DNA of 64,000 nt, taken from assembly GCF_050920415.1 (NCBI RefSeq), contig NZ_CP169309.1; one strand, written 5' to 3'. Source of the stretch: Escherichia coli. Its GTDB lineage: Bacteria; Pseudomonadota; Gammaproteobacteria; Enterobacterales; Enterobacteriaceae. The position numbers and the translations under genes were made by a program. Below the pieces are notes generated by a model. The model worked only from the letters and a program-made list of their open reading frames with translations, made no database searches and had not been told where the DNA came from. Each line of letters starts with the position of its first letter. Positions within the stretch are counted from its first letter, which is position 1. Shown piece by piece: positions 11,206-55,792 of this stretch.

Positions 11206-11281
<76 letters not shown>

Positions 11282-11316
11282 TTGGGTGGTCTGTGCTTTG
11301 CAGCACTTTCAAATTT

Positions 11317-11392
<76 letters not shown>

Positions 11393-39871: not shown

Positions 39872-40447
39872 GTGCAACGTGAAGATGTACTGGGAGAAGC
39901 CCTGAAATTATTAGAATTACAAGGGATTGCCAACACCACGCTGGAGATGGTTGCTGAACGTGTGGATTATCCACTGGACGAGCTACGCCGCTTCTGGCCA
40001 GACAAAGAGGCAATCCTCTATGATGCGCTGCGCTATCTTAGCCAACAGATAGATGTCTGGCGTCGTCAGCTGATGCTGGACGAAACGCAAACCGCCGAAC
40101 AAAAGCTGCTGGCACGTTATCAGGCGTTATCGGAGTGCGTTAAAAACAACCGCTATCCGGGCTGTCTGTTTATCGCTGCCTGTACGTTTTATCCCGATCC
40201 TGGCCACCCTATTCATCAACTGGCCGATCAGCAAAAAAGCGCGGCCTACGATTTCACCCACGAACTGTTAACCACGCTGGAAGTTGACGATCCGGCGATG
40301 GTAGCAAAGCAGATGGAACTGGTGCTGGAAGGCTGTTTAAGCCGAATGCTGGTGAATCGTAGCCACGCGGATGTCGACACCGCACATCGGCTGGCAGAAG
40401 ATATCCTGCGCTTCGCTCGCTGCCGCCAGGGTGGCGCACTGACCTGA
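39872..40447 (+). CDS. yjdC: TetR-family transcriptional regulator YjdC
   Basis: About 191 aa from an apparent GTG start ([31 protein letters not shown]...), HTH TetR N-terminus. Confidence 0.8.
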
Positions 40448-40553
40448 CAGAAACACAGAAAAGAAGCGATTTGCCGCAATCTTAAGCAGTTGAATCGCTT
40501 TTACTGAAATTAGGTTGACGAGATGTGCAGATTACGGTTTAATGCGCCCCGTT

Positions 40554-40629
40554 GCCCGGATAGCTCAGTCGGTAGAGCAGGGGATTGAAAATCCCCGTGT
40601 CCTTGGTTCGATTCCGAGTCCGGGCACCA
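40554..40629 (+). tRNA. pheU: tRNA-Phe (anticodon GAA)
   Basis: GCCCGGATAGCTCAGTCGGTAGAGCAGGGGATTGAAAATCCCCGTGTCCTTGGTTCGATTCCGAGTCCGGGCACCA. Confidence 0.95.
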
Positions 40630-40638
40630 AATTCATAT

Positions 40639-40667
40639 AAACGGACCTCCACGGAGGTCCGTTTTTC
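40639..40667 (+). terminator. Rho-independent terminator after tRNA-Phe
   Basis: Hairpin GGACCTCC...GGAGGTCC followed by TTTTT. Confidence 0.7.
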
Positions 40668-40670
40668 GTT

Positions 40671-40946
40671 TCAGGACGCCATGTGATTTAAGCGTTCTGC
40701 CTTCAAATCATTTCTAACAATCTCAACCAAATTTTCCCACATCGCCAGCATGTTGCGGGTATACCCCAGCTCTGGGAAATTTATCCCTAAGCTATGAATG
40801 ACTCTCACGAAATGTCGTGCGGCTGCGTGATGCAGTTGAAAATCAAATGATGTCATCAAGAGCTTAACGGTATCGTTGCCGATGACATATATAAAGCACA
40901 ACCTCGGGCAGAACGCCGACTGATGAGATTTTCTGAATGAGAACAA
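40671..40946 (-). pseudogene. Possible degenerate integrase-like remnant ORF next to tRNA-Phe (uncertain)
   Basis: 91-aa ORF next to the tRNA 3' end; contains H-x-x-x-R and L-G-Y segments loosely resembling tyrosine-recombinase C-terminal motifs; no full-length partner. Confidence 0.3.
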
Positions 40947-41260
40947 AGAGAAATGTATCAGTCCGCTTGCTCATGCAAAGACTAACAATCCATAAAAATA
41001 GTAAGCGCGCCGGGCAATTTCCCATGGATTATTTTCTGAACATTTTTCTTTGGCAAAGATGATGAATTTTGATGATAAGGAATATTACTTCTGGTTCTCA
41101 GTAAAATCCTTTCGTAATACTATGTAATCAAGAAGTTTATGGCTGGTAAAAATAACGTCTTGCATTCACCAATTATATGTAAATAAAACCATCTATAGAT
41201 GGTAAAAATAGGTTGTGGCAATTATCATTGAACCATTCCCTTTTCGAATGAGTTTCTATT

Positions 41261-42799
41261 ATGCAACAACCTGTAGTTCGCGTTGGCGAATGGCTTGTTA
41301 CTCCGTCCATAAACCAAATTAGTCGCAATGGGCGTCAACTTACCCTTGAGCCGAGATTAATCGATCTTCTGGTTTTCTTTGCTCAACACAGTGGCGAAGT
41401 ACTTAGCAGGGATGAACTTATCGATAATGTCTGGAAGAGAAGTATTGTCACCAATCACGTTGTGACGCAGAGTATCTCAGAACTACGTAAGTCATTAAAA
41501 GATAATGATGAAGATAGTCCTGTCTATATCGCTACTGTACCAAAGCGCGGCTATAAATTAATGGTGCCGGTTATCTGGTACAGCGAAGAAGAGGGAGAGG
41601 AAATAATGCTATCTTCGCCTCCCCCTATACCAGAGGCGGTTCCTGACACAGATTCTCCCTCCCAAAGTCTTAACATTCAAAGCACCGCAACACCACCTGA
41701 ACAATCCCCAGTTAAAAGCAAACGATTCACTACCTTTTGGGTATGGTTTTTTTTCCTGTTGTCGTTAGGTATCTGTGTAGCACTGGTAGCGTTTTCAAGT
41801 CTTGATACACGTCTTCCTATGAGCAAATCGCGTATTTTGCTCAATCCACGCGATATTGACATTAATATGGTAAATAAAAGTTGTAACAGCTGGAGTTCCC
41901 CGTATCAGCTCTCTTACGCGATAGGCGTGGGTGATTTGGTGGCGACATCACTTAACACCTTCTCCACCTTTATGGTGCATGACAAAATCAACTACAACAT
42001 TGATGAACCGAGCAGTTCCGGTAAAACATTATCTATTGCGTTTGTTAATCAGCGCCAATACCGTGCTCAACAATGCTTTATGTCGGTAAAATTGGTAGAC
42101 AATGCAGATGGTTCAACCATGCTGGATAAACGTTATGTCATCACTAACGGTAATCAGCTGGCGATTCAAAATGATTTACTGGAGAGTTTATCAAAAGCGT
42201 TAAACCAACCGTGGCCACAACGAATGCAGGAGATGCTCCAGCAAATTTTGCCGCATCGTGGTGCGTTATTAACTAATTTTTATCAGGCTCATGATTATTT
42301 ACTGCATGGCGATGATAAATCATTGAACCGTGCCAGTGAATTACTAGGTGAGATTGTTCAATCATCCCCCGAATTTACCTACGCGAGAGCAGAAAAAGCA
42401 TTAGTTGATATCGTGCGCCATTCTCAACATCCTTTAGATGAAAAACAATTAGCAGCACTGAATACAGAAATAGATAACATTGTTACACTGCCGGAATTGA
42501 ACAACCTGTCCATTATATATCAAATAAAAGCGGTCAGTGCTCTGGTAAAAGGTAAAACAGATGAGTCTTACCAGGCGATAAATACTGGCATTGATCTTGA
42601 AATGTCCTGGCTAAATTATGTGTTGCTTGGCAAGGTTTATGAAATGAAGGGGATGAACCGGGAAGCAGCTGATGCATATCTCACCGCCTTTAATTTACGC
42701 CCAGGGGCAAACACCCTTTACTGGATTGAAAATGGTATATTCCAGACTTCTGTTCCTTATGTTGTACCTTATCTCGACAAATTTCTCGCCTCAGAATAA
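41261..42799 (+). CDS. cadC: Membrane-integrated transcriptional activator CadC (ToxR-like)
   Basis: 512-aa ORF MQQPVVRVGEWLVTPSINQISRNGRQLTLEPRLIDLLVFF...; winged-helix N-terminus, single TM, periplasmic sensor. Confidence 0.95.
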   Translation: MQQPVVRVGEWLVTPSINQISRNGRQLTLEPRLIDLLVFFAQHSGEVLSRDELIDNVWKRSIVTNHVVTQSISELRKSLKDNDEDSPVYIATVPKRGYKLMVPVIWYSEEEGEEIMLSSPPPIPEAVPDTDSPSQSLNIQSTATPPEQSPVKSKRFTTFWVWFFFLLSLGICVALVAFSSLDTRLPMSKSRILLNPRDIDINMVNKSCNSWSSPYQLSYAIGVGDLVATSLNTFSTFMVHDKINYNIDEPSSSGKTLSIAFVNQRQYRAQQCFMSVKLVDNADGSTMLDKRYVITNGNQLAIQNDLLESLSKALNQPWPQRMQEMLQQILPHRGALLTNFYQAHDYLLHGDDKSLNRASELLGEIVQSSPEFTYARAEKALVDIVRHSQHPLDEKQLAALNTEIDNIVTLPELNNLSIIYQIKAVSALVKGKTDESYQAINTGIDLEMSWLNYVLLGKVYEMKGMNREAADAYLTAFNLRPGANTLYWIENGIFQTSVPYVVPYLDKFLASE

Positions 42800-42874
42800 G
42801 TGACTCCCGGGTTGACTCATGCTCGGGAATATTTGTTGTTGATTTTTTGTATGTTATTGTTGATATAATATGTT

Positions 42875-42900
42875 GCGGCAATTTATTTGCCGCATATTTT
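42875..42900 (+). terminator. Terminator-like hairpin after cadC
   Basis: GCGGCAAAT-TT-ATTTGCCGC followed by a T-rich run. Confidence 0.5.
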
Positions 42901-42989
42901 TTATAACAGAAATTTAACCGAAAAACATCTCTTAATTCATTGTAAATATTGAATGTTTATCTTTTCATGATATCAACTTGCGATCCTGA

Positions 42990-43163
42990 TGTGTTAATAA
43001 AAAACCTCAAGTTCTCACTTACAGAAACTTTTGTGTTATTTCACCTAATCTTTAGGATTAATCTTTTTTTTTGAGTAATCTTGTCGCCAGTTTGGTCTGG
43101 TCAGTAAATAGTTACGCATCATGACCCGGACTCCAAATTCAAAAATGAAATTAGGAGAAGAGC
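42990..43163 (+). promoter_or_regulatory. cadBA promoter region (Pcad), CadC-dependent
   Basis: AT-rich region directly upstream of cadB; individual CadC sites not resolved by eye. Confidence 0.4.
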
Positions 43164-44498
43164 ATGAGTTCTGCCAAGAAGATCGGGCTATTTGCCTGTA
43201 CCGGTGTTGTTGCCGGTAATATGATGGGGAGCGGCATTGCATTATTGCCTGCGAACCTTGCAAGTATCGGTGGTATTGCTATCTGGGGTTGGATTATCTC
43301 TATTATTGGTGCAATGTCGTTGGCTTATGTATATGCCCGACTGGCAACAAAAAACCCGCAACAAGGTGGCCCAATTGCTTATGCCGGAGAAATTTCTCCT
43401 GCATTTGGTTTTCAGACAGGTGTTCTTTATTACCATGCTAACTGGATTGGTAACCTGGCGATTGGTATTACCGCTGTATCTTATCTTTCCACCTTCTTCC
43501 CTGTATTAAATGATCCTGTTCCGGCGGGTATCGCTTGTATTGCTATCGTCTGGGTATTTACCTTTGTAAATATGCTCGGCGGTACCTGGGTAAGCCGTTT
43601 AACCACTATTGGTCTGGTGCTGGTTCTTATTCCTGTAGTTATGACTGCTATTGTTGGCTGGCATTGGTTTGATGCTGCAACTTATGCTGCTAACTGGAAT
43701 ACCGCAGGTACTACTGATGGTCATGCGATCATTAAAAGTATTCTGCTCTGCCTGTGGGCCTTCGTGGGTGTTGAATCCGCAGCGGTAAGTACTGGTATGG
43801 TTAAAAACCCGAAACGTACCGTTCCGCTGGCAACCATGCTGGGTACTGGTTTAGCAGGTATTGTTTACATCGCTGCGACTCAGGTGCTTTCCGGTATGTA
43901 TCCGTCTTCTGTAATGGCAGGCTCCGGTGCTCCGTTTGCAATCAGTGCTTCTACTATCCTGGGTAACTGGGCTGCGCCGATGGTTTCTGCATTCACCGCT
44001 TTTGCGTGCCTGACTTCTCTGGGTTCCTGGATGATGCTGGTAGGTCAGGCAGGTGTGCGTGCCGCTAACGACGGTAACTTCCCGAAAGTTTATGGTGAAG
44101 TCGACAGCAACGGTATTCCGAAAAAAGGTCTGCTGCTGGCTGCAGTGAAAATGACTGCCCTGATGATCCTCATCACTCTGATGAACTCTGCCGGTGGTAA
44201 AGCATCTGACCTGTTCGGTGAACTGACCGGTATCGCAGTACTGCTGACTATGCTGCCGTACTTCTACTCTTGCGTTGACCTGATTCGTTTTGAAGGCGTT
44301 AACATCCGCAACTTTGTCAGCCTGATCTGCTCTGTACTGGGTTGCGTGTTCTGCTTCATCGCGCTGATGGGCGCAAGCTCCTTCGAGCTGGCAGGTACCT
44401 TCATCGTCAGCCTGATTATCCTGATGTTCTACGCTCGCAAAATGCACGAGCGCCAGAGCCACTCAATGGATAACCACACAGCGTCTAACGCACATTAA
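43164..44498 (+). CDS. cadB: Lysine/cadaverine antiporter CadB
   Basis: 444-aa APC-family ORF MSSAKKIGLFACTGVVAGNMMGSGIALLPANLA... Confidence 0.95.
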   Translation: MSSAKKIGLFACTGVVAGNMMGSGIALLPANLASIGGIAIWGWIISIIGAMSLAYVYARLATKNPQQGGPIAYAGEISPAFGFQTGVLYYHANWIGNLAIGITAVSYLSTFFPVLNDPVPAGIACIAIVWVFTFVNMLGGTWVSRLTTIGLVLVLIPVVMTAIVGWHWFDAATYAANWNTAGTTDGHAIIKSILLCLWAFVGVESAAVSTGMVKNPKRTVPLATMLGTGLAGIVYIAATQVLSGMYPSSVMAGSGAPFAISASTILGNWAAPMVSAFTAFACLTSLGSWMMLVGQAGVRAANDGNFPKVYGEVDSNGIPKKGLLLAAVKMTALMILITLMNSAGGKASDLFGELTGIAVLLTMLPYFYSCVDLIRFEGVNIRNFVSLICSVLGCVFCFIALMGASSFELAGTFIVSLIILMFYARKMHERQSHSMDNHTASNAH

Positions 44499-44577
44499 TT
44501 AAAAGTATTTTCCGAGGCTCCTCCTTTCATTTTGTCCCATGTGTTGGGAGGGGCCTTTTTTACCTGGAGATATGACT

Positions 44578-46725
44578 ATGAACGTTATTGCAATATTGAA
44601 TCACATGGGGGTTTATTTTAAAGAAGAACCCATCCGTGAACTTCATCGCGCGCTTGAACGTCTGAACTTCCAGATTGTTTACCCGAATGACCGTGACGAC
44701 TTATTAAAACTGATCGAAAACAATGCGCGTCTGTGCGGTGTTATTTTTGACTGGGATAAATATAATCTCGAGCTGTGCGAAGAAATTAGCAAAATGAACG
44801 AGAACCTGCCGTTGTACGCGTTCGCTAATACGTATTCCACTCTCGATGTCAGCCTGAATGACCTGCGTTTACAGATTAGCTTCTTTGAATATGCGCTGGG
44901 TGCTGCTGATGATATTGCTAACAAGATCAAGCAGACCACTGACGAATATATCAACACTATTCTGCCTCCGCTGACCAAAGCACTGTTTAAATATGTTCGT
45001 GAAGGTAAATATACTTTCTGTACTCCTGGTCACATGGGCGGTACTGCATTCCAGAAAAGCCCGGTAGGTAGCCTGTTCTATGATTTCTTTGGTCCGAACA
45101 CCATGAAATCTGATATTTCCATTTCAGTATCTGAATTGGGTTCTCTGCTGGATCACAGCGGTCCGCACAAAGAAGCAGAACAGTATATCGCTCGCGTATT
45201 TAACGCAGACCGCAGCTACATGGTGACCAACGGTACTTCCACTGCGAACAAAATTGTTGGTATGTACTCTGCTCCGGCAGGCAGCACCATTCTGATTGAC
45301 CGTAACTGCCACAAATCGCTGACCCACCTGATGATGATGAGCGATGTTACGCCAATCTATTTCCGCCCGACCCGTAACGCTTACGGTATTCTTGGTGGTA
45401 TCCCACAGAGTGAATTCCAGCACGCTACCATTGCTAAGCGCGTAAAAGAAACACCAAACGCGACCTGGCCGGTACATGCCGTAATTACTAACTCTACCTA
45501 TGATGGCCTGCTGTACAACACCGACTTCATCAAGAAAACACTGGATGTAAAATCCATCCACTTTGACTCCGCGTGGGTGCCTTACACCAACTTCTCACCG
45601 ATTTACGAAGGTAAATGCGGTATGAGCGGTGGCCGTGTAGAAGGGAAAGTGATTTACGAAACCCAGTCTACTCACAAACTGCTGGCGGCGTTCTCTCAGG
45701 CTTCCATGATCCACGTTAAAGGTGATGTAAACGAAGAAACCTTTAACGAAGCCTACATGATGCACACCACCACTTCTCCGCACTACGGTATCGTGGCGTC
45801 CACTGAAACCGCTGCGGCGATGATGAAAGGTAATGCTGGTAAGCGTCTGATCAACGGTTCCATTGAACGTGCGATCAAGTTCCGTAAAGAGATCAAACGC
45901 CTGAGAACGGAATCTGATGGCTGGTTCTTTGATGTATGGCAGCCGGATCATATCGATACCACTGAATGCTGGCCGCTGCGTTCTGACAGCTCCTGGCACG
46001 GCTTCAAGAACATCGACAATGAGCACATGTATCTTGACCCGATCAAAGTCACCCTGCTGACCCCGGGGATGGAAAAAGACGGCACCATGAGCGACTTTGG
46101 TATTCCGGCCAGCATCGTGGCGAAATACCTCGACGAACATGGCATCGTTGTTGAGAAAACCGGCCCGTATAACCTGCTGTTCCTGTTCAGCATCGGTATT
46201 GATAAGACCAAAGCATTGAGCCTGCTGCGTGCTCTGACTGACTTCAAACGTGCGTTCGACCTGAACCTGCGTGTGAAAAACATGCTGCCGTCTCTGTATC
46301 GTGAAGATCCTGAATTCTATGAAGATATGCGTATTCAGGAACTGGCTCAGAATATCCACAAACTGATTGTTCACCACAATCTGCCGGATCTGATGTATCG
46401 CGCATTTGAAGTGCTGCCGACAATGGTAATGACTCCGTATGCTGCGTTCCAGAAAGAGCTGCACGGTATGACCGAAGAAGTTTACCTCGACGAAATGGTA
46501 GGTCGTATTAACGCCAATATGATCCTTCCGTATCCGCCGGGAGTTCCTCTGGTAATGCCGGGTGAAATGATCACCGAAGAAAGCCGTCCGGTGCTGGAGT
46601 TCCTGCAGATGCTGTGTGAAATCGGCGCTCACTATCCGGGCTTTGAAACCGATATTCACGGTGCATACCGTCAGGCTGATGGTCGCTATACCGTTAAGGT
46701 ATTGAAAGAAGAAAGCAAAAAATAA
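44578..46725 (+). CDS. cadA: Inducible lysine decarboxylase CadA
   Basis: ORF-track 728 aa; start set at MNVIAILNHMGVYFKEEPIREL... (715 aa); PLP fold. Confidence 0.96.
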   Translation: MNVIAILNHMGVYFKEEPIRELHRALERLNFQIVYPNDRDDLLKLIENNARLCGVIFDWDKYNLELCEEISKMNENLPLYAFANTYSTLDVSLNDLRLQISFFEYALGAADDIANKIKQTTDEYINTILPPLTKALFKYVREGKYTFCTPGHMGGTAFQKSPVGSLFYDFFGPNTMKSDISISVSELGSLLDHSGPHKEAEQYIARVFNADRSYMVTNGTSTANKIVGMYSAPAGSTILIDRNCHKSLTHLMMMSDVTPIYFRPTRNAYGILGGIPQSEFQHATIAKRVKETPNATWPVHAVITNSTYDGLLYNTDFIKKTLDVKSIHFDSAWVPYTNFSPIYEGKCGMSGGRVEGKVIYETQSTHKLLAAFSQASMIHVKGDVNEETFNEAYMMHTTTSPHYGIVASTETAAAMMKGNAGKRLINGSIERAIKFRKEIKRLRTESDGWFFDVWQPDHIDTTECWPLRSDSSWHGFKNIDNEHMYLDPIKVTLLTPGMEKDGTMSDFGIPASIVAKYLDEHGIVVEKTGPYNLLFLFSIGIDKTKALSLLRALTDFKRAFDLNLRVKNMLPSLYREDPEFYEDMRIQELAQNIHKLIVHHNLPDLMYRAFEVLPTMVMTPYAAFQKELHGMTEEVYLDEMVGRINANMILPYPPGVPLVMPGEMITEESRPVLEFLQMLCEIGAHYPGFETDIHGAYRQADGRYTVKVLKEESKK

Positions 46726-46783
46726 TTAGCTCGTACAAGGGAAGTGGCTTGCCACTTCCCTTTTTTGCTCATAAGGAGAACAC

Positions 46784-48241
46784 ATGAAAACACCCTCACA
46801 GCCGCGCGCGATATACTATATCGTGGCGATCCAAATCTGGGAGTACTTCAGTTTTTACGGCATGCGTGCCTTACTCATTCTCTACCTCACCCATCAGCTT
46901 GGTTTTGATGATAACCATGCCATCAGTCTGTTCAGCGCATATGCTTCTCTGGTTTACGTTACCCCTATTCTCGGCGGCTGGCTTGCCGACCGCCTGCTCG
47001 GCAACCGCACTGCAGTGATTGCCGGCGCGCTGTTAATGACCCTTGGCCATGTGGTGCTGGGCATTGATACAAATTCAACCTTTAGCCTGTATCTGGCGCT
47101 GGCAATCATTATTTGTGGCTACGGTTTATTCAAATCGAACATCAGCTGTTTGCTTGGCGAGCTCTATGCCCCTGACGATCATCGACGTGATGGCGGTTTT
47201 TCGCTGCTGTATGCTGCGGGCAATATCGGTTCTATCGCAGCCCCCATCGCCTGCGGTCTGGCTGCTCAGTGGTATGGATGGCATGTTGGCTTTGCCCTTG
47301 CGGGTGGTGGCATGTTTATCGGTTTGTTGATTTTCTTAAGCGGTCATCGTCATTTCCAGTCAACGCGTAGTATGGATAAAAAAGCGCTCACTCGCGTGAA
47401 ATTTGCCTTACCGGTATGGAGCTGGTTAGTGGTGATGCTCTGTTTAGCCCCAGTATTTTTTACCCTACTGCTGGAGAACGACTGGTCCGGATATTTGCTG
47501 GCGATCGTTTGCCTTATTGCTGCACAAATCATTGCCCGCATGATGATCAAATACCCCGAACACCGTCGTGCTCTTTGGCAAATAGTATTGTTGATGCTTG
47601 TCGGAACGTTGTTCTGGGTACTGGCACAACAGGGCGGCAGCACCATCAGCTTGTTTATCGATCGCTTTGTGAATCGTCAGGCATTCAATATTGAAGTGCC
47701 GACTGCGCTATTCCAGTCAGTGAATGCGATTGCAGTGATGCTCGCTGGGGTTGTTCTGGCCTGGCTGGCGTCGCCAGAAAGCCGCGGCAATTCAGCATTG
47801 CGCGTCTGGCTGAAGTTTGCCTTTGGCTTACTGCTGATGGCTTGTGGCTTTATGTTGCTGGCATTTGATGCCCGACATGCAGCGGCTGGCGGTCAAGCGT
47901 CAATGGGCGTGATGATATCCGGGCTGGCGCTAATGGGCTTTGCCGAACTCTTTATTGACCCGGTGGCGATTGCGCAAATCACGCGTCTGAAAATGTCTGG
48001 CGTATTAACCGGTATTTATATGCTGGCAACAGGCGCGGTCGCCAACTGGCTGGCAGGCGTCGTGGCACAGCAGACGACAGAGTCGCAAATTAGCGGAATG
48101 GCAATTGCAGCTTACCAGCGATTCTTTTCTCAGATGGGAGAGTGGACGTTGGCTTGTGTCGCGATCATCGTGGTATTGGCCTTTGCTACCCGTTTTCTGT
48201 TTAGCACGCCGACGAATATGATACAGGAGAGCAACGATTAA
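46784..48241 (+). CDS. dtpC: Dipeptide/tripeptide:H+ symporter DtpC (YjdL), POT family
   Basis: 485-aa [39 protein letters not shown]... Confidence 0.92.
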
Positions 48242-48477
48242 CTGTCGTAAAAACAATTGGTTATGAATAAATTAACTTTCAGTTTATCACACTAGCAAAT
48301 CGAGATTAATAAGTCATTTAAACCATTTTTATGGTTATTTATTAGTGATATCAACTTGAGGTAAGCGTTAGTTTCGATAAGATAAACTGAGTTATTAATA
48401 GTCGAGGCAGATAATACAGTGTACCGATCTGTCTCTTTATCTACGCTAAATTGAAAGCTGGATTTAGAGGAACCAAA

Positions 48478-49995
48478 ATGTCTGAACGAGAAACACGGGG
48501 AGCCAATGAGGCTATTGATTTTAACGATGAACTGAGAAATCGCCGCGAAAAACTGGCAGCACTGCGTCAGCAAGGTGTGGCGTTTCCTAATGATTTTCGC
48601 CGCGACCATACCTCTGACCAGTTGCACGAAGAGTTTGATGCGAAGGATAACCAGGAACTGGAATCCTTAAACATTGAAGTCTCGGTTGCTGGCCGAATGA
48701 TGACCCGTCGTATCATGGGGAAAGCCTCCTTTGTAACGTTGCAGGATGTCGGTGGCCGTATTCAACTGTACGTTGCACGAGATAGCCTGCCAGAAGGTGT
48801 TTATAACGATCAGTTTAAAAAATGGGACCTCGGCGACATTATCGGTGCCCGCGGTACGCTGTTTAAGACGCAAACGGGTGAACTTTCCATTCACTGTACT
48901 GAGCTGCGCCTGCTGACTAAAGCACTACGTCCTTTACCAGATAAATTCCATGGTCTGCAGGATCAGGAAGTCCGTTATCGTCAACGTTATCTGGACCTCA
49001 TCGCTAACGATAAATCCCGTCAAACGTTTGTTGTCCGTTCAAAAATTCTGGCCGCTATCCGCCAGTTCATGGTCGCGCGCGGCTTTATGGAAGTAGAAAC
49101 CCCGATGATGCAGGTAATTCCAGGTGGGGCATCTGCTCGCCCGTTTATTACCCATCATAATGCTCTGGATTTGGATATGTACCTGCGTATTGCGCCGGAG
49201 CTATATCTGAAACGTCTGGTTGTAGGTGGTTTTGAACGGGTATTCGAAATCAACCGTAACTTCCGTAATGAAGGTATTTCTGTTCGTCATAATCCTGAGT
49301 TCACGATGATGGAACTCTACATGGCGTATGCGGATTACCACGATTTGATTGAACTGACGGAATCACTGTTCCGCACTCTGGCACAAGAGGTACTGGGTAC
49401 CACTAAAGTCACTTATGGCGAGCATGTGTTTGATTTCGGCAAACCGTTTGAAAAACTCACCATGCGCGAAGCAATCAAAAAATATCGTCCAGAAACCGAT
49501 ATGGCGGACCTGGATAATTTTGATGCTGCTAAAGCATTAGCTGAATCTATCGGAATTACGGTAGAGAAAAGCTGGGGGCTGGGACGCATTGTCACGGAGA
49601 TCTTTGATGAAGTGGCAGAAGCACATCTGATTCAGCCAACCTTTATCACGGAATATCCGGCAGAAGTGTCACCGCTGGCGCGCCGTAATGATGTTAACCC
49701 GGAAATCACCGACCGTTTTGAATTCTTCATCGGTGGTCGTGAAATCGGTAATGGTTTTAGCGAATTAAACGACGCAGAAGATCAGGCGGAACGTTTCCAG
49801 GAACAGGTTAACGCTAAAGCTGCAGGTGACGACGAAGCCATGTTCTATGACGAAGATTACGTGACTGCGCTGGAATATGGTCTGCCGCCAACCGCGGGTC
49901 TGGGTATTGGTATCGACCGAATGATTATGCTGTTTACTAACAGTCATACTATTCGCGACGTTATTCTCTTCCCGGCGATGCGTCCACAGAAATAA
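48478..49995 (+). CDS. lysU: Lysine--tRNA ligase, heat-inducible (LysU)
   Basis: ORF-track 514 aa; start set at [33 protein letters not shown]...; class II aaRS motifs; identified as lysU by its position next to cadBA/dtpC. Confidence 0.93.
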
Positions 49996-50006
49996 ATTTC
50001 ATTTTA

Positions 50007-50040
50007 ACGAACGAAGCAGTCAGACGACTGCTTCGTTCGT
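50007..50040. terminator. Bidirectional terminator-like hairpin between lysU and ghoT
   Basis: Perfect 15-bp inverted repeat ACGAACGAAGCAGTC-AGAC-GACTGCTTCGTTCGT between convergent genes; no strong T-run. Confidence 0.45.
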
Positions 50041-50113
50041 CGTTCCACAAATCCAGTTTCGAGGAGAGACGCTTCGTTTCAAGATAACCAGCGGGTCCAC
50101 TCAACTACAGCTC

Positions 50114-50287
50114 CTAAAAGAGAGAAAAAAGTAATGCCACAGGCAGGCTCATTGGCCAGGTTATTCCGACCAGAAATGCACTAAGTAAACGAATATGTGT
50201 TTTCTCATGTGAGATAAACCAGATAATGACAAAGGATATGTTCACACCAATCACATAAAAAATTAATATTTTAGAGAATAGTGCCAT
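50114..50287 (-). CDS. ghoT: Type V toxin GhoT (small membrane-lytic peptide)
   Basis: 57-aa ORF MALFSKILIFYVIGVNISFVIIWFISHEKTHIRLLSAFLVGITWPMSLPVALLFSLF, immediately downstream of ghoS; below the ORF-track size cut-off. Confidence 0.85.
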   Translation of the reverse strand: MALFSKILIFYVIGVNISFVIIWFISHEKTHIRLLSAFLVGITWPMSLPVALLFSLF

Positions 50288-50314
50288 TTTTTATGTTCTT
50301 CTTATCCTTCCTGA

Positions 50315-50611
50315 CTACTTGTAAAACTGACGGAAATAGTCATCAACGGTCATAATGTTGAGGTCAAAATCAATATCCGGTAAGTCTAAGCATTTGAGCC
50401 TGATTAAATCTTCGATTTCACTTGCGGCTAACGATGTCGTTATTGCGAAGGAATTTTCATTCAATTGTCGTGGTATCCCATATTCATCAGCCACGATAGA
50501 GGAGAAATTCATATCATACATCAATGATCTTAACCTTAAGAACACTGAGGAATAAGATGATGGATAATCAAAAGAAACAACATAAGTATTGAACTTGTTT
50601 TTACCTTCCAT
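50315..50611 (-). CDS. ghoS: Type V antitoxin GhoS (endoribonuclease)
   Basis: 98-aa ORF MEGKNKFNTYVVSFDYPSSYSSVFLRLRSLMYDMNFSS... Confidence 0.88.
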   Translation of the reverse strand: MEGKNKFNTYVVSFDYPSSYSSVFLRLRSLMYDMNFSSIVADEYGIPRQLNENSFAITTSLAASEIEDLIRLKCLDLPDIDFDLNIMTVDDYFRQFYK

Positions 50612-50840
50612 AATATGACTCCTATCAATATTAAAACGATCTGGGGACGCACAACTTATTAACCCCGATCGATGATTCTCATATAGGAGATATTCTTTTT
50701 TTTTTGCTCAGTAAAGGGGATGACTTGGGACAAGAAAACGCTCTCTCTGACCATTCTTTGTGCATCCCCCTACCCTTCAGATTCTCTCCTGCATCACACC
50801 GCGGAGAGCATGAAAAATATCGTGACTCTGTACTCTCCCA

Positions 50841-51113
50841 TCAACTGCGAATATCATCATACTCCCGCGTTTTATCAAATTCGTGTTTCGCAAATGGACA
50901 TAATGGGATAATTTTTCGTTTTTCCCGACGCATTTTTTCCACGACTTTCGCAACCAGCTGTTTACCAATCCCCTGCCCTTTCAGGCTTTCATCGACATCG
51001 GTATGTTCGATAATCGCTAAATTCTTGCCGGTCGGCACAAAGACAATTTCAGCAATTTGCTTGCCCTGTTCGTCATTAATGTAAAATTTATTGTGGCCTT
51101 CGCGTATTTCCAT
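50841..51113 (-). CDS. yjdJ: GNAT-family N-acetyltransferase YjdJ
   Basis: 90-aa ORF with GNAT acetyl-CoA motif ([16 protein letters not shown]). Confidence 0.85.
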
Positions 51114-51124
51114 TTTACCCTCGC

Positions 51125-51355
51125 TTATTTATGACGGTATTTCAGCGCGCCGCTCGGGCACGTATCAATCACTTTAACCACAGTGGCAACGTCGACTTCA
51201 TCCGGCATGATCCACGGCTTTCGTTTGAGATTAAATAACTTGCCGTTGCCACGTACGCAATTGCCAGAATGCTGACATATCGCAGTGTTGAAATAGACAT
51301 CGATCTTTTCGCCGGTATAACAGCGATAACCCCCGTCCAGTAGCGCCTGATCCAT
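51125..51355 (-). CDS. yjdI: Uncharacterised Cys-rich protein YjdI
   Basis: 76-aa ORF with several Cys residues ([25 protein letters not shown]...). Confidence 0.8.
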
Positions 51356-51535
51356 GACCTTCCCTCTCTCATCAGTATGGTTTTCACTATAAGCATAGCC
51401 CTGGAATCTTCATACAGCACTGGCAGTTTCCGTTGCCAGAGTCTCTTCCCCTATATAGCCAATCATTCTTACTCCCTTTGAATTACCCGCCTCATCAGAG
51501 ATAATGCTTAAGAAATTTGTCACACAAGGAAGCTG

Positions 51536-53167: not shown

Positions 53168-53883
53168 TCAATGTATTAATTATTGATGACGACGCAATGG
53201 TCGCGGAGCTGAATCGTCGATACGTGGCACAAATCCCAGGCTTTCAATGCTGTGGAACGGCCTCGACGCTGGAGAAAGCCAAAGAGATTATCTTCAATAG
53301 CGATACGCCTATCGACCTGATATTGCTCGATATCTATATGCAAAAAGAGAACGGGCTCGATTTACTGCCTGTTCTGCATAATGCGCGTTGCAAAAGTGAT
53401 GTGATTGTTATCTCTTCCGCTGCCGATGCCGCAACCATTAAAGATTCGCTGCATTACGGAGTCGTGGATTACCTGATCAAACCCTTCCAGGCTACCCGCT
53501 TTGAAGAGGCGCTCACCGGCTGGCGGCAAAAGAAAATGGCGCTGGAAAAACATCAGTATTATGACCAGGCCGAGCTTGATCAGCTAATCCACGGCAGCAG
53601 CTCCAACGAGCAGGATCCTCGTCGCTTGCCAAAAGGCTTAACACCACAGACGTTACGCACGCTGTGCCAGTGGATTGACGCGCATCAGGACTATGAGTTT
53701 TCAACCGACGAGCTGGCTAATGAGGTTAACATCTCGCGTGTTTCCTGCCGTAAATATCTCATCTGGCTGGTCAACTGCCACATCTTGTTCACCAGTATCC
53801 ATTATGGCGTCACAGGTCGTCCGGTTTATCGTTATCGTATTCAGGCAGAACATTACTCACTACTTAAACAATATTGCCAATAA
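53164..53883 (+). CDS. dcuR: Response regulator DcuR
   Basis: 239-aa ORF MINVLIIDDDAMVAELNRRYV...; ATGA overlap with the dcuS stop. Confidence 0.95.
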   Translation: MINVLIIDDDAMVAELNRRYVAQIPGFQCCGTASTLEKAKEIIFNSDTPIDLILLDIYMQKENGLDLLPVLHNARCKSDVIVISSAADAATIKDSLHYGVVDYLIKPFQATRFEEALTGWRQKKMALEKHQYYDQAELDQLIHGSSSNEQDPRRLPKGLTPQTLRTLCQWIDAHQDYEFSTDELANEVNISRVSCRKYLIWLVNCHILFTSIHYGVTGRPVYRYRIQAEHYSLLKQYCQ

Positions 53884-54451
53884 CGATCACGGTTATCTGT
53901 AAGTAATAATTATTACAGTAATGCAAAATACCCCTGGCACAAGTTACATCGTTCATCAGTAAAACTTGTGCCAGATCAAATATAATTCCCCCTCTCTCAC
54001 CGCTGAAAATTAATATCTCTTCGGATGAACGGTGTTTTTAATTTCAAAACGCTAACAAAAGTTAATTAACTATTATGTCGCCCACATTATGTGTATTTTT
54101 ACCCACAAATGGGTAGTTAAGAATAATCTATAAACCTGATGATACCTACCCTGAGAACAAAAATTATACCAATAAGTATCAATAAGATAGCAGCAAACAA
54201 AACATTAACATCTGCGTAGTACAAACTATAAACCCATCGCCAGAGAGTATTTCTCTCTGAAAAAACCGCTTATCACAGTGCATAAATTTGCCGCTGCTTT
54301 AATCAGCCAATATTCACTGTGAGGTATTTACTCAAGCCGGTAACGACCAAACGGATATTTAGTCAAGCTCTGAAAACAGTTCATACAAAACAGAACGTGA
54401 CTGTGATCTATTCAGCAAAAATTTAAATAGGATTATCGCGAGGGTTTACAC

Positions 54452-55792
54452 ATGTTATTTACTATCCAACTTATCATAATACTGATATGTCTGTTTTATG
54501 GTGCCAGAAAGGGCGGTATCGCGCTGGGTTTATTAGGCGGTATCGGCCTGGTCATTCTGGTCTTTGTCTTCCACCTTCAGCCAGGTAAACCACCGGTTGA
54601 TGTCATGCTGGTTATCATTGCGGTGGTGGCGGCATCGGCGACCTTGCAAGCTTCGGGCGGTCTTGATGTCATGCTGCAAATTGCCGAGAAGCTGCTGCGC
54701 CGCAATCCGAAATATGTCTCCATTGTCGCACCGTTTGTAACCTGCACGCTGACCATTCTTTGCGGTACGGGCCACGTGGTTTACACCATTCTGCCGATCA
54801 TCTACGACGTTGCTATTAAGAACAACATCCGTCCGGAACGTCCGATGGCGGCAAGTTCTATCGGTGCACAGATGGGGATTATCGCAAGCCCAGTGTCGGT
54901 TGCGGTCGTATCTCTGGTTGCGATGCTGGGTAATGTCACCTTTGATGGTCGCCATCTTGAGTTCCTCGACCTGCTGGCAATCACCATTCCATCGACGTTA
55001 ATCGGTATCCTGGCGATCGGTATCTTCAGTTGGTTCCGCGGTAAAGATCTGGATAAAGATGAAGAGTTCCAGAAATTCATCTCCGTACCGGAAAACCGTG
55101 AGTATGTTTACGGTGATACCGCGACGCTGCTGGATAAAAAACTGCCGAAAAGCAACTGGCTGGCAATGTGGATCTTCCTCGGGGCAATCGCTGTAGTTGC
55201 ACTTCTTGGTGCTGATTCGGACCTGCGTCCATCCTTCGGTGGCAAACCGCTGTCGATGGTACTGGTTATTCAGATGTTTATGCTGCTAACCGGAGCGCTG
55301 ATTATTATCCTGACCAAAACCAATCCCGCGTCTATCTCAAAAAACGAAGTCTTCCGTTCCGGTATGATCGCCATCGTGGCGGTGTACGGTATCGCATGGA
55401 TGGCGGAAACCATGTTCGGTGCGCATATGTCTGAAATTCAGGGCGTACTGGGTGAAATGGTGAAAGAGTATCCGTGGGCCTATGCCATTGTTCTGCTGCT
55501 GGTTTCCAAGTTTGTAAACTCTCAGGCCGCGGCGCTAGCGGCGATTGTTCCGGTCGCGCTGGCGATCGGCGTTGACCCGGCATACATCGTGGCTTCAGCA
55601 CCGGCTTGCTATGGTTATTACATCCTGCCGACTTATCCGAGCGACCTGGCAGCGATTCAGTTTGACCGTTCCGGCACCACCCACATCGGTCGCTTCGTCA
55701 TCAACCACAGCTTTATTCTGCCGGGGTTGATTGGTGTGAGCGTATCGTGCGTCTTCGGCTGGATCTTCGCTGCGATGTACGGGTTCTTATAA
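54452..55792 (+). CDS. dcuB: Anaerobic C4-dicarboxylate antiporter DcuB
   Basis: 446-aa [29 protein letters not shown]...; Dcu family. Confidence 0.95.

Follow-up and report, generated by a model that had tools for sequence, protein, structure and literature searches.

The 631 bp that lie between the tRNA gene pheU and cadC in Escherichia coli are very probably an inert fossil: the integrase module of a P4-type island that occupied a tRNA-Phe gene in the distant past, in which the integrase gene (int) suffered an internal deletion and was not excised. In the stretch of 64,000 nucleotides analysed here (the window), the homology, strand and anatomy of the relic can be read directly from alignments, and its distribution and its position relative to modern islands directly from other genomes. 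The history that we propose begins with a genomic island that would have integrated at the tRNA-Phe 3' end in an ancestor common to E. coli, Escherichia whittamii, and, at a minimum, one lineage of the genus that is more divergent. Its int would then have been shortened from within by about 1 kb (approximately codons 10-355). On the tRNA strand this would have left the island leader, which includes the tRNA terminator, together with the start-codon region of int, its final ~60 codons, and its terminator. Each lineage would later have acquired small indels and stops of its own, and the far att repeat would have disappeared. The relic would now encode nothing, and pheU is still a live attachment site.

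The gene order in the window is dsbD, dicD (yjdC), pheU, cadC, cadB, and onward. pheU (40554-40629, plus strand) is a tRNA-Phe(GAA) recognised by ARAGORN and by the Rfam tRNA model (68 bits); Rfam gave no other match over the locus, and a promoter scan of the locus gave no signal above shuffles. The last 23 nt of pheU (40607-40629) constitute the att core, of which islands inserted there carry a second copy at their far end; in island-bearing genomes, the match to the window resumes at 40607. Since cadC starts at 41261, the spacer runs from 40630 to 41260, and its 631 bp agree with the distance of only ~630 bp given in the initial annotation. Just after the tRNA, a terminator scan and an inverted-repeat search locate the intrinsic terminator of pheU (40639-40669, plus strand), a hairpin with an 11-bp stem and a 4-nt loop followed by a T-run. 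Alignment to the pheU island of NCTC86 (L008) reveals that living pheU and pheV islands have exactly the same hairpin (40639-40664) in their leader, and the terminator is therefore of island origin. At the other end of the spacer, the region upstream of cadC (41054-41260, plus strand) has no recognisable integrase origin, and its homology to cadC modules elsewhere begins only at 41195-41239. The strain MFDS1022581 is 100% identical to the window across the pheU-cadC stretch.

The similarity to integrases is present on the plus strand, in the orientation of pheU, and is distributed over three reading frames from 40826 to 41004. The reference for this comparison was IntU (WP_001218773.1), the intact 421-aa integrase encoded beside pheU in NCTC86. 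In a frameshift-aware protein-DNA alignment, residues 359 to 418 of IntU match 40826-40992 across frameshifts with 35 of 60 residues identical, so that the last ~60 int codons of the relic and of the intact integrase share 58% amino-acid identity. The score is 127 on the plus strand, compared with 36.8±5.1 for shuffles and 35 for the minus strand. K-12 IntB aligns through its residues 334 to 393 to the same segment with a score of 104 (shuffles, 39±5.7; minus strand, 42), and tblastn with K-12 IntB yields plus-strand HSPs that extend to the C-terminus of the protein. Searches of Pfam (PF00589, Phage_integrase) and NCBIfam with the stitched plus-strand peptide and with the three plus-strand frames, stops masked, gave nothing at E<=10, and the stitched 56-aa peptide yielded no candidate in a word-indexed protein search. 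These negative profile and word-based searches would fit a chance resemblance in AT-rich intergenic DNA, but the alignment scores lie 11 to 18 standard deviations above those of shuffles and are specific to one strand, the colinear alignment reaches the stop codon and the terminator of intact int, and the leader is 90% identical across more than 130 bp. Such a coincidence would be vanishingly improbable, and judged by alignment scores and colinearity it can be regarded as already effectively refuted. P4-type integrase homology is confined to the plus strand, and it sits where an island integrase sits: directly 3' of the target tRNA, co-oriented with it, and behind an island-type leader. Only the start region and the last ~60 codons persist, and there is neither an intact ORF nor the catalytic set R-K-H-R-H/W-Y of a functional integrase.

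Two colinear blocks match the intact NCTC86 island, with ~1.1 kb missing between them. Block 1 (40540-40763), which contains the tRNA and the pre-int leader, aligns with L008 3001-3223 at 90%; its identity to the intact islands L008 and L009 is 90-92%. Block 2 (40826-41023) aligns with L008 4362-4572 at 73% and corresponds to the last ~190 bp of int plus ~20 bp beyond. The leader relic as a whole, the attL-side arm of a P4-type phe island, occupies 40630 to ~40793 on the plus strand and is ~90% identical to living pheU and pheV islands. Its identity to modern islands declines with distance from the tRNA (39/40, 35/42, 29/40, and 23/40), a gradient that would fit recurrent exchange with islands arriving at the site. 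The leader is also closer to modern islands (~90%) than is the 3' part of int (73-81%), and so an extra assumption is needed, either constraint or recombinational refreshment.

Alignments to intact int place the int start codon and the first codons at 40794-40825 (plus strand), followed by the internal deletion joint. At this joint (~40815-40825), int codons ~8-13 are fused to codons ~350-358. The start relic reads MALTDAKCRA in E. whittamii, compared with MALTDAKIRA in intact int, and IALTDVKCRAA-P in K-12; the window copy is weaker. The divergent Escherichia lineage L015 retains 10 and 23 extra bp around the joint. Because the start-codon relic has been kept, int lost ~1 kb internally and not simply its N-terminus. 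The ~345 missing codons include those for the catalytic Arg-I, Lys, His, and Arg-II.

The last ~60 int codons, through the original stop, lie at 40826-41004 (plus strand), as defined by the frameshift-aware alignment and by 73% DNA identity to L008; this segment is the yjdQ ortholog discussed below. It contains a 1-nt insertion (an extra T) near 40853, a change of the catalytic Tyr codon from TAC to GAC (40884-40886), a 14-bp deletion at 40925/40926, and in-frame stops at 40993-40995 and 40999-41001, ahead of the original TAA (41002-41004). Alignments also identify a 16-bp int segment (40870-40885, plus strand; codons around NGVRAAY) that is present in the window, E. whittamii, and L015 and is deleted in the common E. 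coli allele, including that of K-12. Beyond the stop, alignment to L008 identifies a decayed int terminator hairpin and T-run (41005-41053, plus strand; the terminator copy itself at 41008-41053), in which CCCGGGCAAATGCCCGGG...TTTTCTTTG corresponds to CGCCGGGCAATTTCCCATGG...TTTTCTTTG downstream of the int stop in L008.

The initial annotation had assigned the integrase resemblance to the minus strand, to an ORF of 91 aa with a TTG start (40671-40946) whose product was thought to resemble, loosely, the catalytic C-terminus of tyrosine recombinases. This ORF is indeed the only one of at least 60 aa in the spacer, but the resemblance did not hold up. BLASTP of the product against K-12 IntB and two intact integrases of pheU and pheV islands, the comparison with P4-type integrases that had been suggested as a check, gave a best match of E=2.4 (15 bits). 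Pfam and NCBIfam gave nothing at E<=10, and frameshift-tolerant alignment of integrases to the minus strand yields scores of 35 to 42, inside the shuffle range. The idea that the ORF is itself an integrase fragment, or a real small gene, draws on its being the longest ORF in the spacer and on the fact that ORFs of 91 aa or more arise in only 3.6% of spacer shuffles, a frequency that makes it only mildly unusual. The idea is nonetheless extremely unlikely: the product lacks integrase similarity and domain matches, the start codon is TTG, the frame lies antisense to demonstrable integrase homology, and it is either disrupted or changed in K-12, E. whittamii, L015, YDC107, and MDR_56. In K-12, YDC107, and MDR_56 the open stretches opposite the relic are different composites; in E. 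whittamii the antisense frame is shorter than 91 aa; and L015 lacks any open frame of 40 aa or more at the position of the ORF. Neither RefSeq K-12 nor PGAP annotates an ORF at 40671-40946. By these comparisons, the ORF is not integrase-like, and it is almost certainly no gene but a fortuitous frame, open by chance antisense to the integrase relic.

The relic itself is already known, since by its sequence and position it corresponds to the K-12 pseudogene yjdQ (b4654). In the K-12 RefSeq record, yjdQ lies in the orthologous spacer on the pheU strand, without a product name; the flanking genes and the strand are the same as in the window, and the two sequences align colinearly. In most E. coli, PGAP labels the relic as 'tyrosine-type recombinase/integrase, frameshifted, incomplete', in the tRNA orientation, and leaves it unannotated in the genome that is 100% identical to the window. 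EcoGene lists yjdQ as a P4-like integrase remnant. A search of the literature found no paper text that mentions yjdQ, and the matches to 'b4654' were irrelevant. Thus, the suggestion in the initial annotation of a decayed integrase at an empty hotspot finds support in the plus-strand homology, in yjdQ of MG1655, and in the PGAP labels. The window allele differs from yjdQ by ~20% over 40700-40915, keeps the 16 bp of int that are absent from K-12, and has 2-bp and 1-bp indels of its own. The annotated K-12 feature covers only ~160 bp, and the relic recognisable in the window (leader, start, 3' end, and terminator; ~40630-41053) exceeds it.

The closest intact counterparts are the intP4-type integrases of the E. 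coli islands GI-pheV and GI-pheU (PMC11537424, PMC7686366). Like the relic, these genes (e.g., that for WP_001218773.1 in NCTC86) lie immediately 3' of a tRNA-Phe gene and run in the tRNA direction; the leader is ~90% identical, the last 60 codons are 58% identical at the amino-acid level, and the same stop is followed by a terminator. Unlike the relic, they are intact and functional, with 421 codons, whereas the relic has lost ~345 codons, carries a mutated Tyr, frameshifts, and stops, and has neither an island nor an attR after its int remains. A second parallel is intB (b4271) of the cryptic prophage PR-Y at leuX in K-12, which is likewise a P4-family integrase gene decaying beside a tRNA attachment site, and which has in common with the relic the C-terminal motif ...RDAVERQMSH...ERRLM...DFL..R..ISPFEYAK.NNP. 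intB differs in being nearly full length and in using another tRNA.

Site-specific excision recombines attL with attR and takes int away with the island. The initial annotation had nonetheless explained the remnant as the scar of normal integration followed by integrase-mediated excision. pheU is a live and frequently used attachment site, occupied in ~31% of genomes, and movement of pathogenicity islands (PAIs) between pheU and pheV has been described (PMC7686366), both of which speak for such a scar. Even so, excision removes int and cannot join both of its ends in place, and in the relic the leader, the start, and the last 60 codons are colinear with intact int except for one internal gap. 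Colinear int ends fused in place are the signature of an internal deletion, and an excision scar is therefore very unlikely. In addition, there is no second att copy: the terminal 23-mer of the tRNA gene, even when as many as 3 mismatches are tolerated, occurs once in the 64-kb window, and within the spacer a repeat search brought up nothing att-like, its results being the terminator hairpin and short repeats attributable to chance. Thus, the direct repeat of the tRNA-Phe 3' end that had been proposed as a check is found neither in the spacer nor elsewhere in the window. As int would not have survived a precise excision, the structure is a record of in-place decay by deletion. The view that no island resides here was correct; there is no attR, no cargo lies between the tRNA and the conserved flank, and cadC comes 631 bp past the tRNA, directly after the spacer, in a contiguous arrangement found in 3,736 of 5,425 genomes. 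Since no attR-like repeat is left, neither how far the original island reached nor what became of it can be read from the locus.

The relic is nearly universal in E. coli. In at least 5,210 of 5,425 complete genomes (at least 96%), 80% or more of 40500-41300 is found in one place. The same deletion joint occurs in E. whittamii and in L015, whose CadC is 91% identical and whose flanking genes are 91-93% identical to those of the window. Both retain extra bits of the leader, the joint, and the int start, as well as the 16-bp int segment. The shared joint, together with this extra int sequence, argues for one old deletion followed by lineage-specific erosion, and indicates that the deletion is probably older than the split between E. 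coli and E. whittamii. We infer a single ancient integration, the order in which the deletions would have occurred, and a refreshment of the tRNA-proximal part by exchange with incoming islands. An exact 23-mer scan of species-representative genomes matched E. whittamii and one chance sequence, and is uninformative on E. albertii, E. marmotae, and E. ruysiae; an E. albertii contig with CadC ends ahead of the spacer.

Outside Escherichia, synteny is kept up to dicD-pheU in Salmonella, Citrobacter, and Kosakonia, and DNA homology to the window stops exactly at the tRNA 3' end (40629), with a different gene content downstream. Therefore, the sequence from 40630 onward is Escherichia-specific, and it is of island origin at least to 41053. 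On the other side of the tRNA, E. whittamii has a gene of ~670 aa between dicD and pheU (L011 3263-5278) for which E. coli has no counterpart. A Citrobacter genome has a 674-aa gene at this position (L023 10644-12668) with a DUF1176 call, a call that the E. whittamii gene does not receive. A gene upstream of pheU appears to have been lost in E. coli.

The version of the relic found in the window is a rare haplotype, present in 18 of 5,426 genomes. Within it, a hyper-divergent patch (40700-40915) differs by 16-20% from both the common E. coli allele and E. whittamii; its flanks differ by 0-5%. A metagenome contig (L035) carries the same patch within a more divergent downstream background. This pattern suggests that the patch was imported by short-tract recombination from another Escherichia lineage. 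A scan of metagenomes for a motif containing the 16-bp segment returned 11 matches, 10 of which were due to chance. As donors of the relic or the patch, phage collections contained no match and plasmid collections no closer sequence, the plasmid matches being mis-filed E. coli chromosomes or Salmonella int genes of ~70% identity. Divergence also spikes in the cadC-cadB intergenic region (42800-43000), where the window has 10-13 differences per 100 bp to K-12 or YDC107 against a background of 0-3.

Modern islands continue to use pheU. This site, between yjdC and cadC, is a major insertion site for PAIs and for the LEE, and the integrase found there is common with pheV islands (PMC7686366, bioRxiv 10.1101/549998, PMC11537424). 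Occupancy was measured with a query from dicD to the relic, which was made to reach into dicD because pheV and pheU islands share the same leader. This query is contiguous in 3,736 of the 5,425 genomes (69%), and in the other ~31% it is interrupted either where the tRNA ends or 114 bp further on, so that pheU is taken to be occupied in ~31%, in agreement with the literature on pheU as an insertion site. In MDR_56 and NCTC86, the island sits between the tRNA and the relic. A comparison with strains that carry islands at pheU or pheV had been proposed in the initial annotation. The ~65-kb pheU island of NCTC86 (NZ_CP019778.1 4733777-4799659; L008/L036/L037) is flanked by a direct repeat with 143 of 156 positions identical (92%). 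Each copy combines the last 23 nt of the tRNA gene with 133 nt from the leader, and the right copy is the start of the relic. Present-day islands enter between the tRNA core and the relic, and the relic leader becomes the right copy of an imperfect direct repeat of ~156 bp.

Two further observations concern these islands. The bounds of the NCTC86 island are marked by a 156-bp repeat instead of only the 19-23-bp att usually quoted, and near both ends there is a GGGTATA-containing motif that may be an integrase arm site. In another genome with an island at pheU (GCA_053291625.1; L021), the match to the window resumes at 40607, CadC is truncated to 463 aa, and cadB is broken into pieces, a state that looks like the inactivation of the cad operon of the Shigella/EIEC type.

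The low-GC DNA that follows the relic raises the question of whether the relic is the left end of a larger ancient pheU island, whose cargo, cadCBA and possibly dtpC-lysU-ghoST, became part of the core genome. GC content is 0.52-0.55 ahead of pheU but drops to 0.39-0.42 over cadC, which begins only ~200 bp beyond the int terminator relic. Synteny conserved to dicD-pheU differs right after the tRNA in Salmonella, Citrobacter, and Kosakonia, and E. fergusonii has cadCBA at another locus, beside pgaA and a GGDEF gene. These features would be expected of cargo, but there is no attR or right boundary within the 64 kb, and the low GC of cadC could have other causes. Moreover, homology to cadC modules elsewhere starts at 41195-41239 and not at the relic, and so the cad unit may have moved independently. 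The flanks compared in the other genera span 10 kb, and synteny may resume beyond that distance. On balance, we consider a cargo origin of the cad block possible but unlikely.

Several features of the surroundings were recorded along with these comparisons. After pheU, GC is mostly below 0.50 through cadCBA-dtpC-lysU-ghoST (~40000-51500), with dips near 50000-51000 and 53500-54500. cadC-like genes occur in unrelated contexts (L013, L016, L018, L020): beside pgaA and a GGDEF gene in E. fergusonii, behind a transposase of the IS110 type, behind one of the Tn3 type, and within an island. In all these cases the homology sets in 22-66 bp before the start of cadC, a pattern that would suit a mobile cadC module whose left edge is fixed. 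The strain identical to the window has an IS2 between dcuR and dcuB (~54000-55200). Far from the locus and unrelated to the relic, two tandem tRNA-Gly(GCC) genes lie at 11206-11392 on the minus strand.

Taken alone, the relic matters little, as K-12 and most RefSeq E. coli genomes already carry an annotation for it. The present analysis contributes its correct strand, its full extent, its probable origin by internal deletion, and a dating of that deletion before the split between E. coli and E. whittamii. If the cad block was indeed cargo, then the cadCBA acid-stress block would have come into Escherichia on a pheU island and would have been fixed after the internal deletion that crippled the integrase. 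For the islands of today, the relic is situated beyond the attR of modern pheU islands and lengthens their flanking repeat to ~156 bp, and its position is relevant to the definition of pheU island borders and to the design of PCR assays for occupancy. Homologous exchange with phe islands that arrive may keep renewing the relic leader, and the ~156-bp repeat to which it contributes would offer a RecA-dependent route for island loss.
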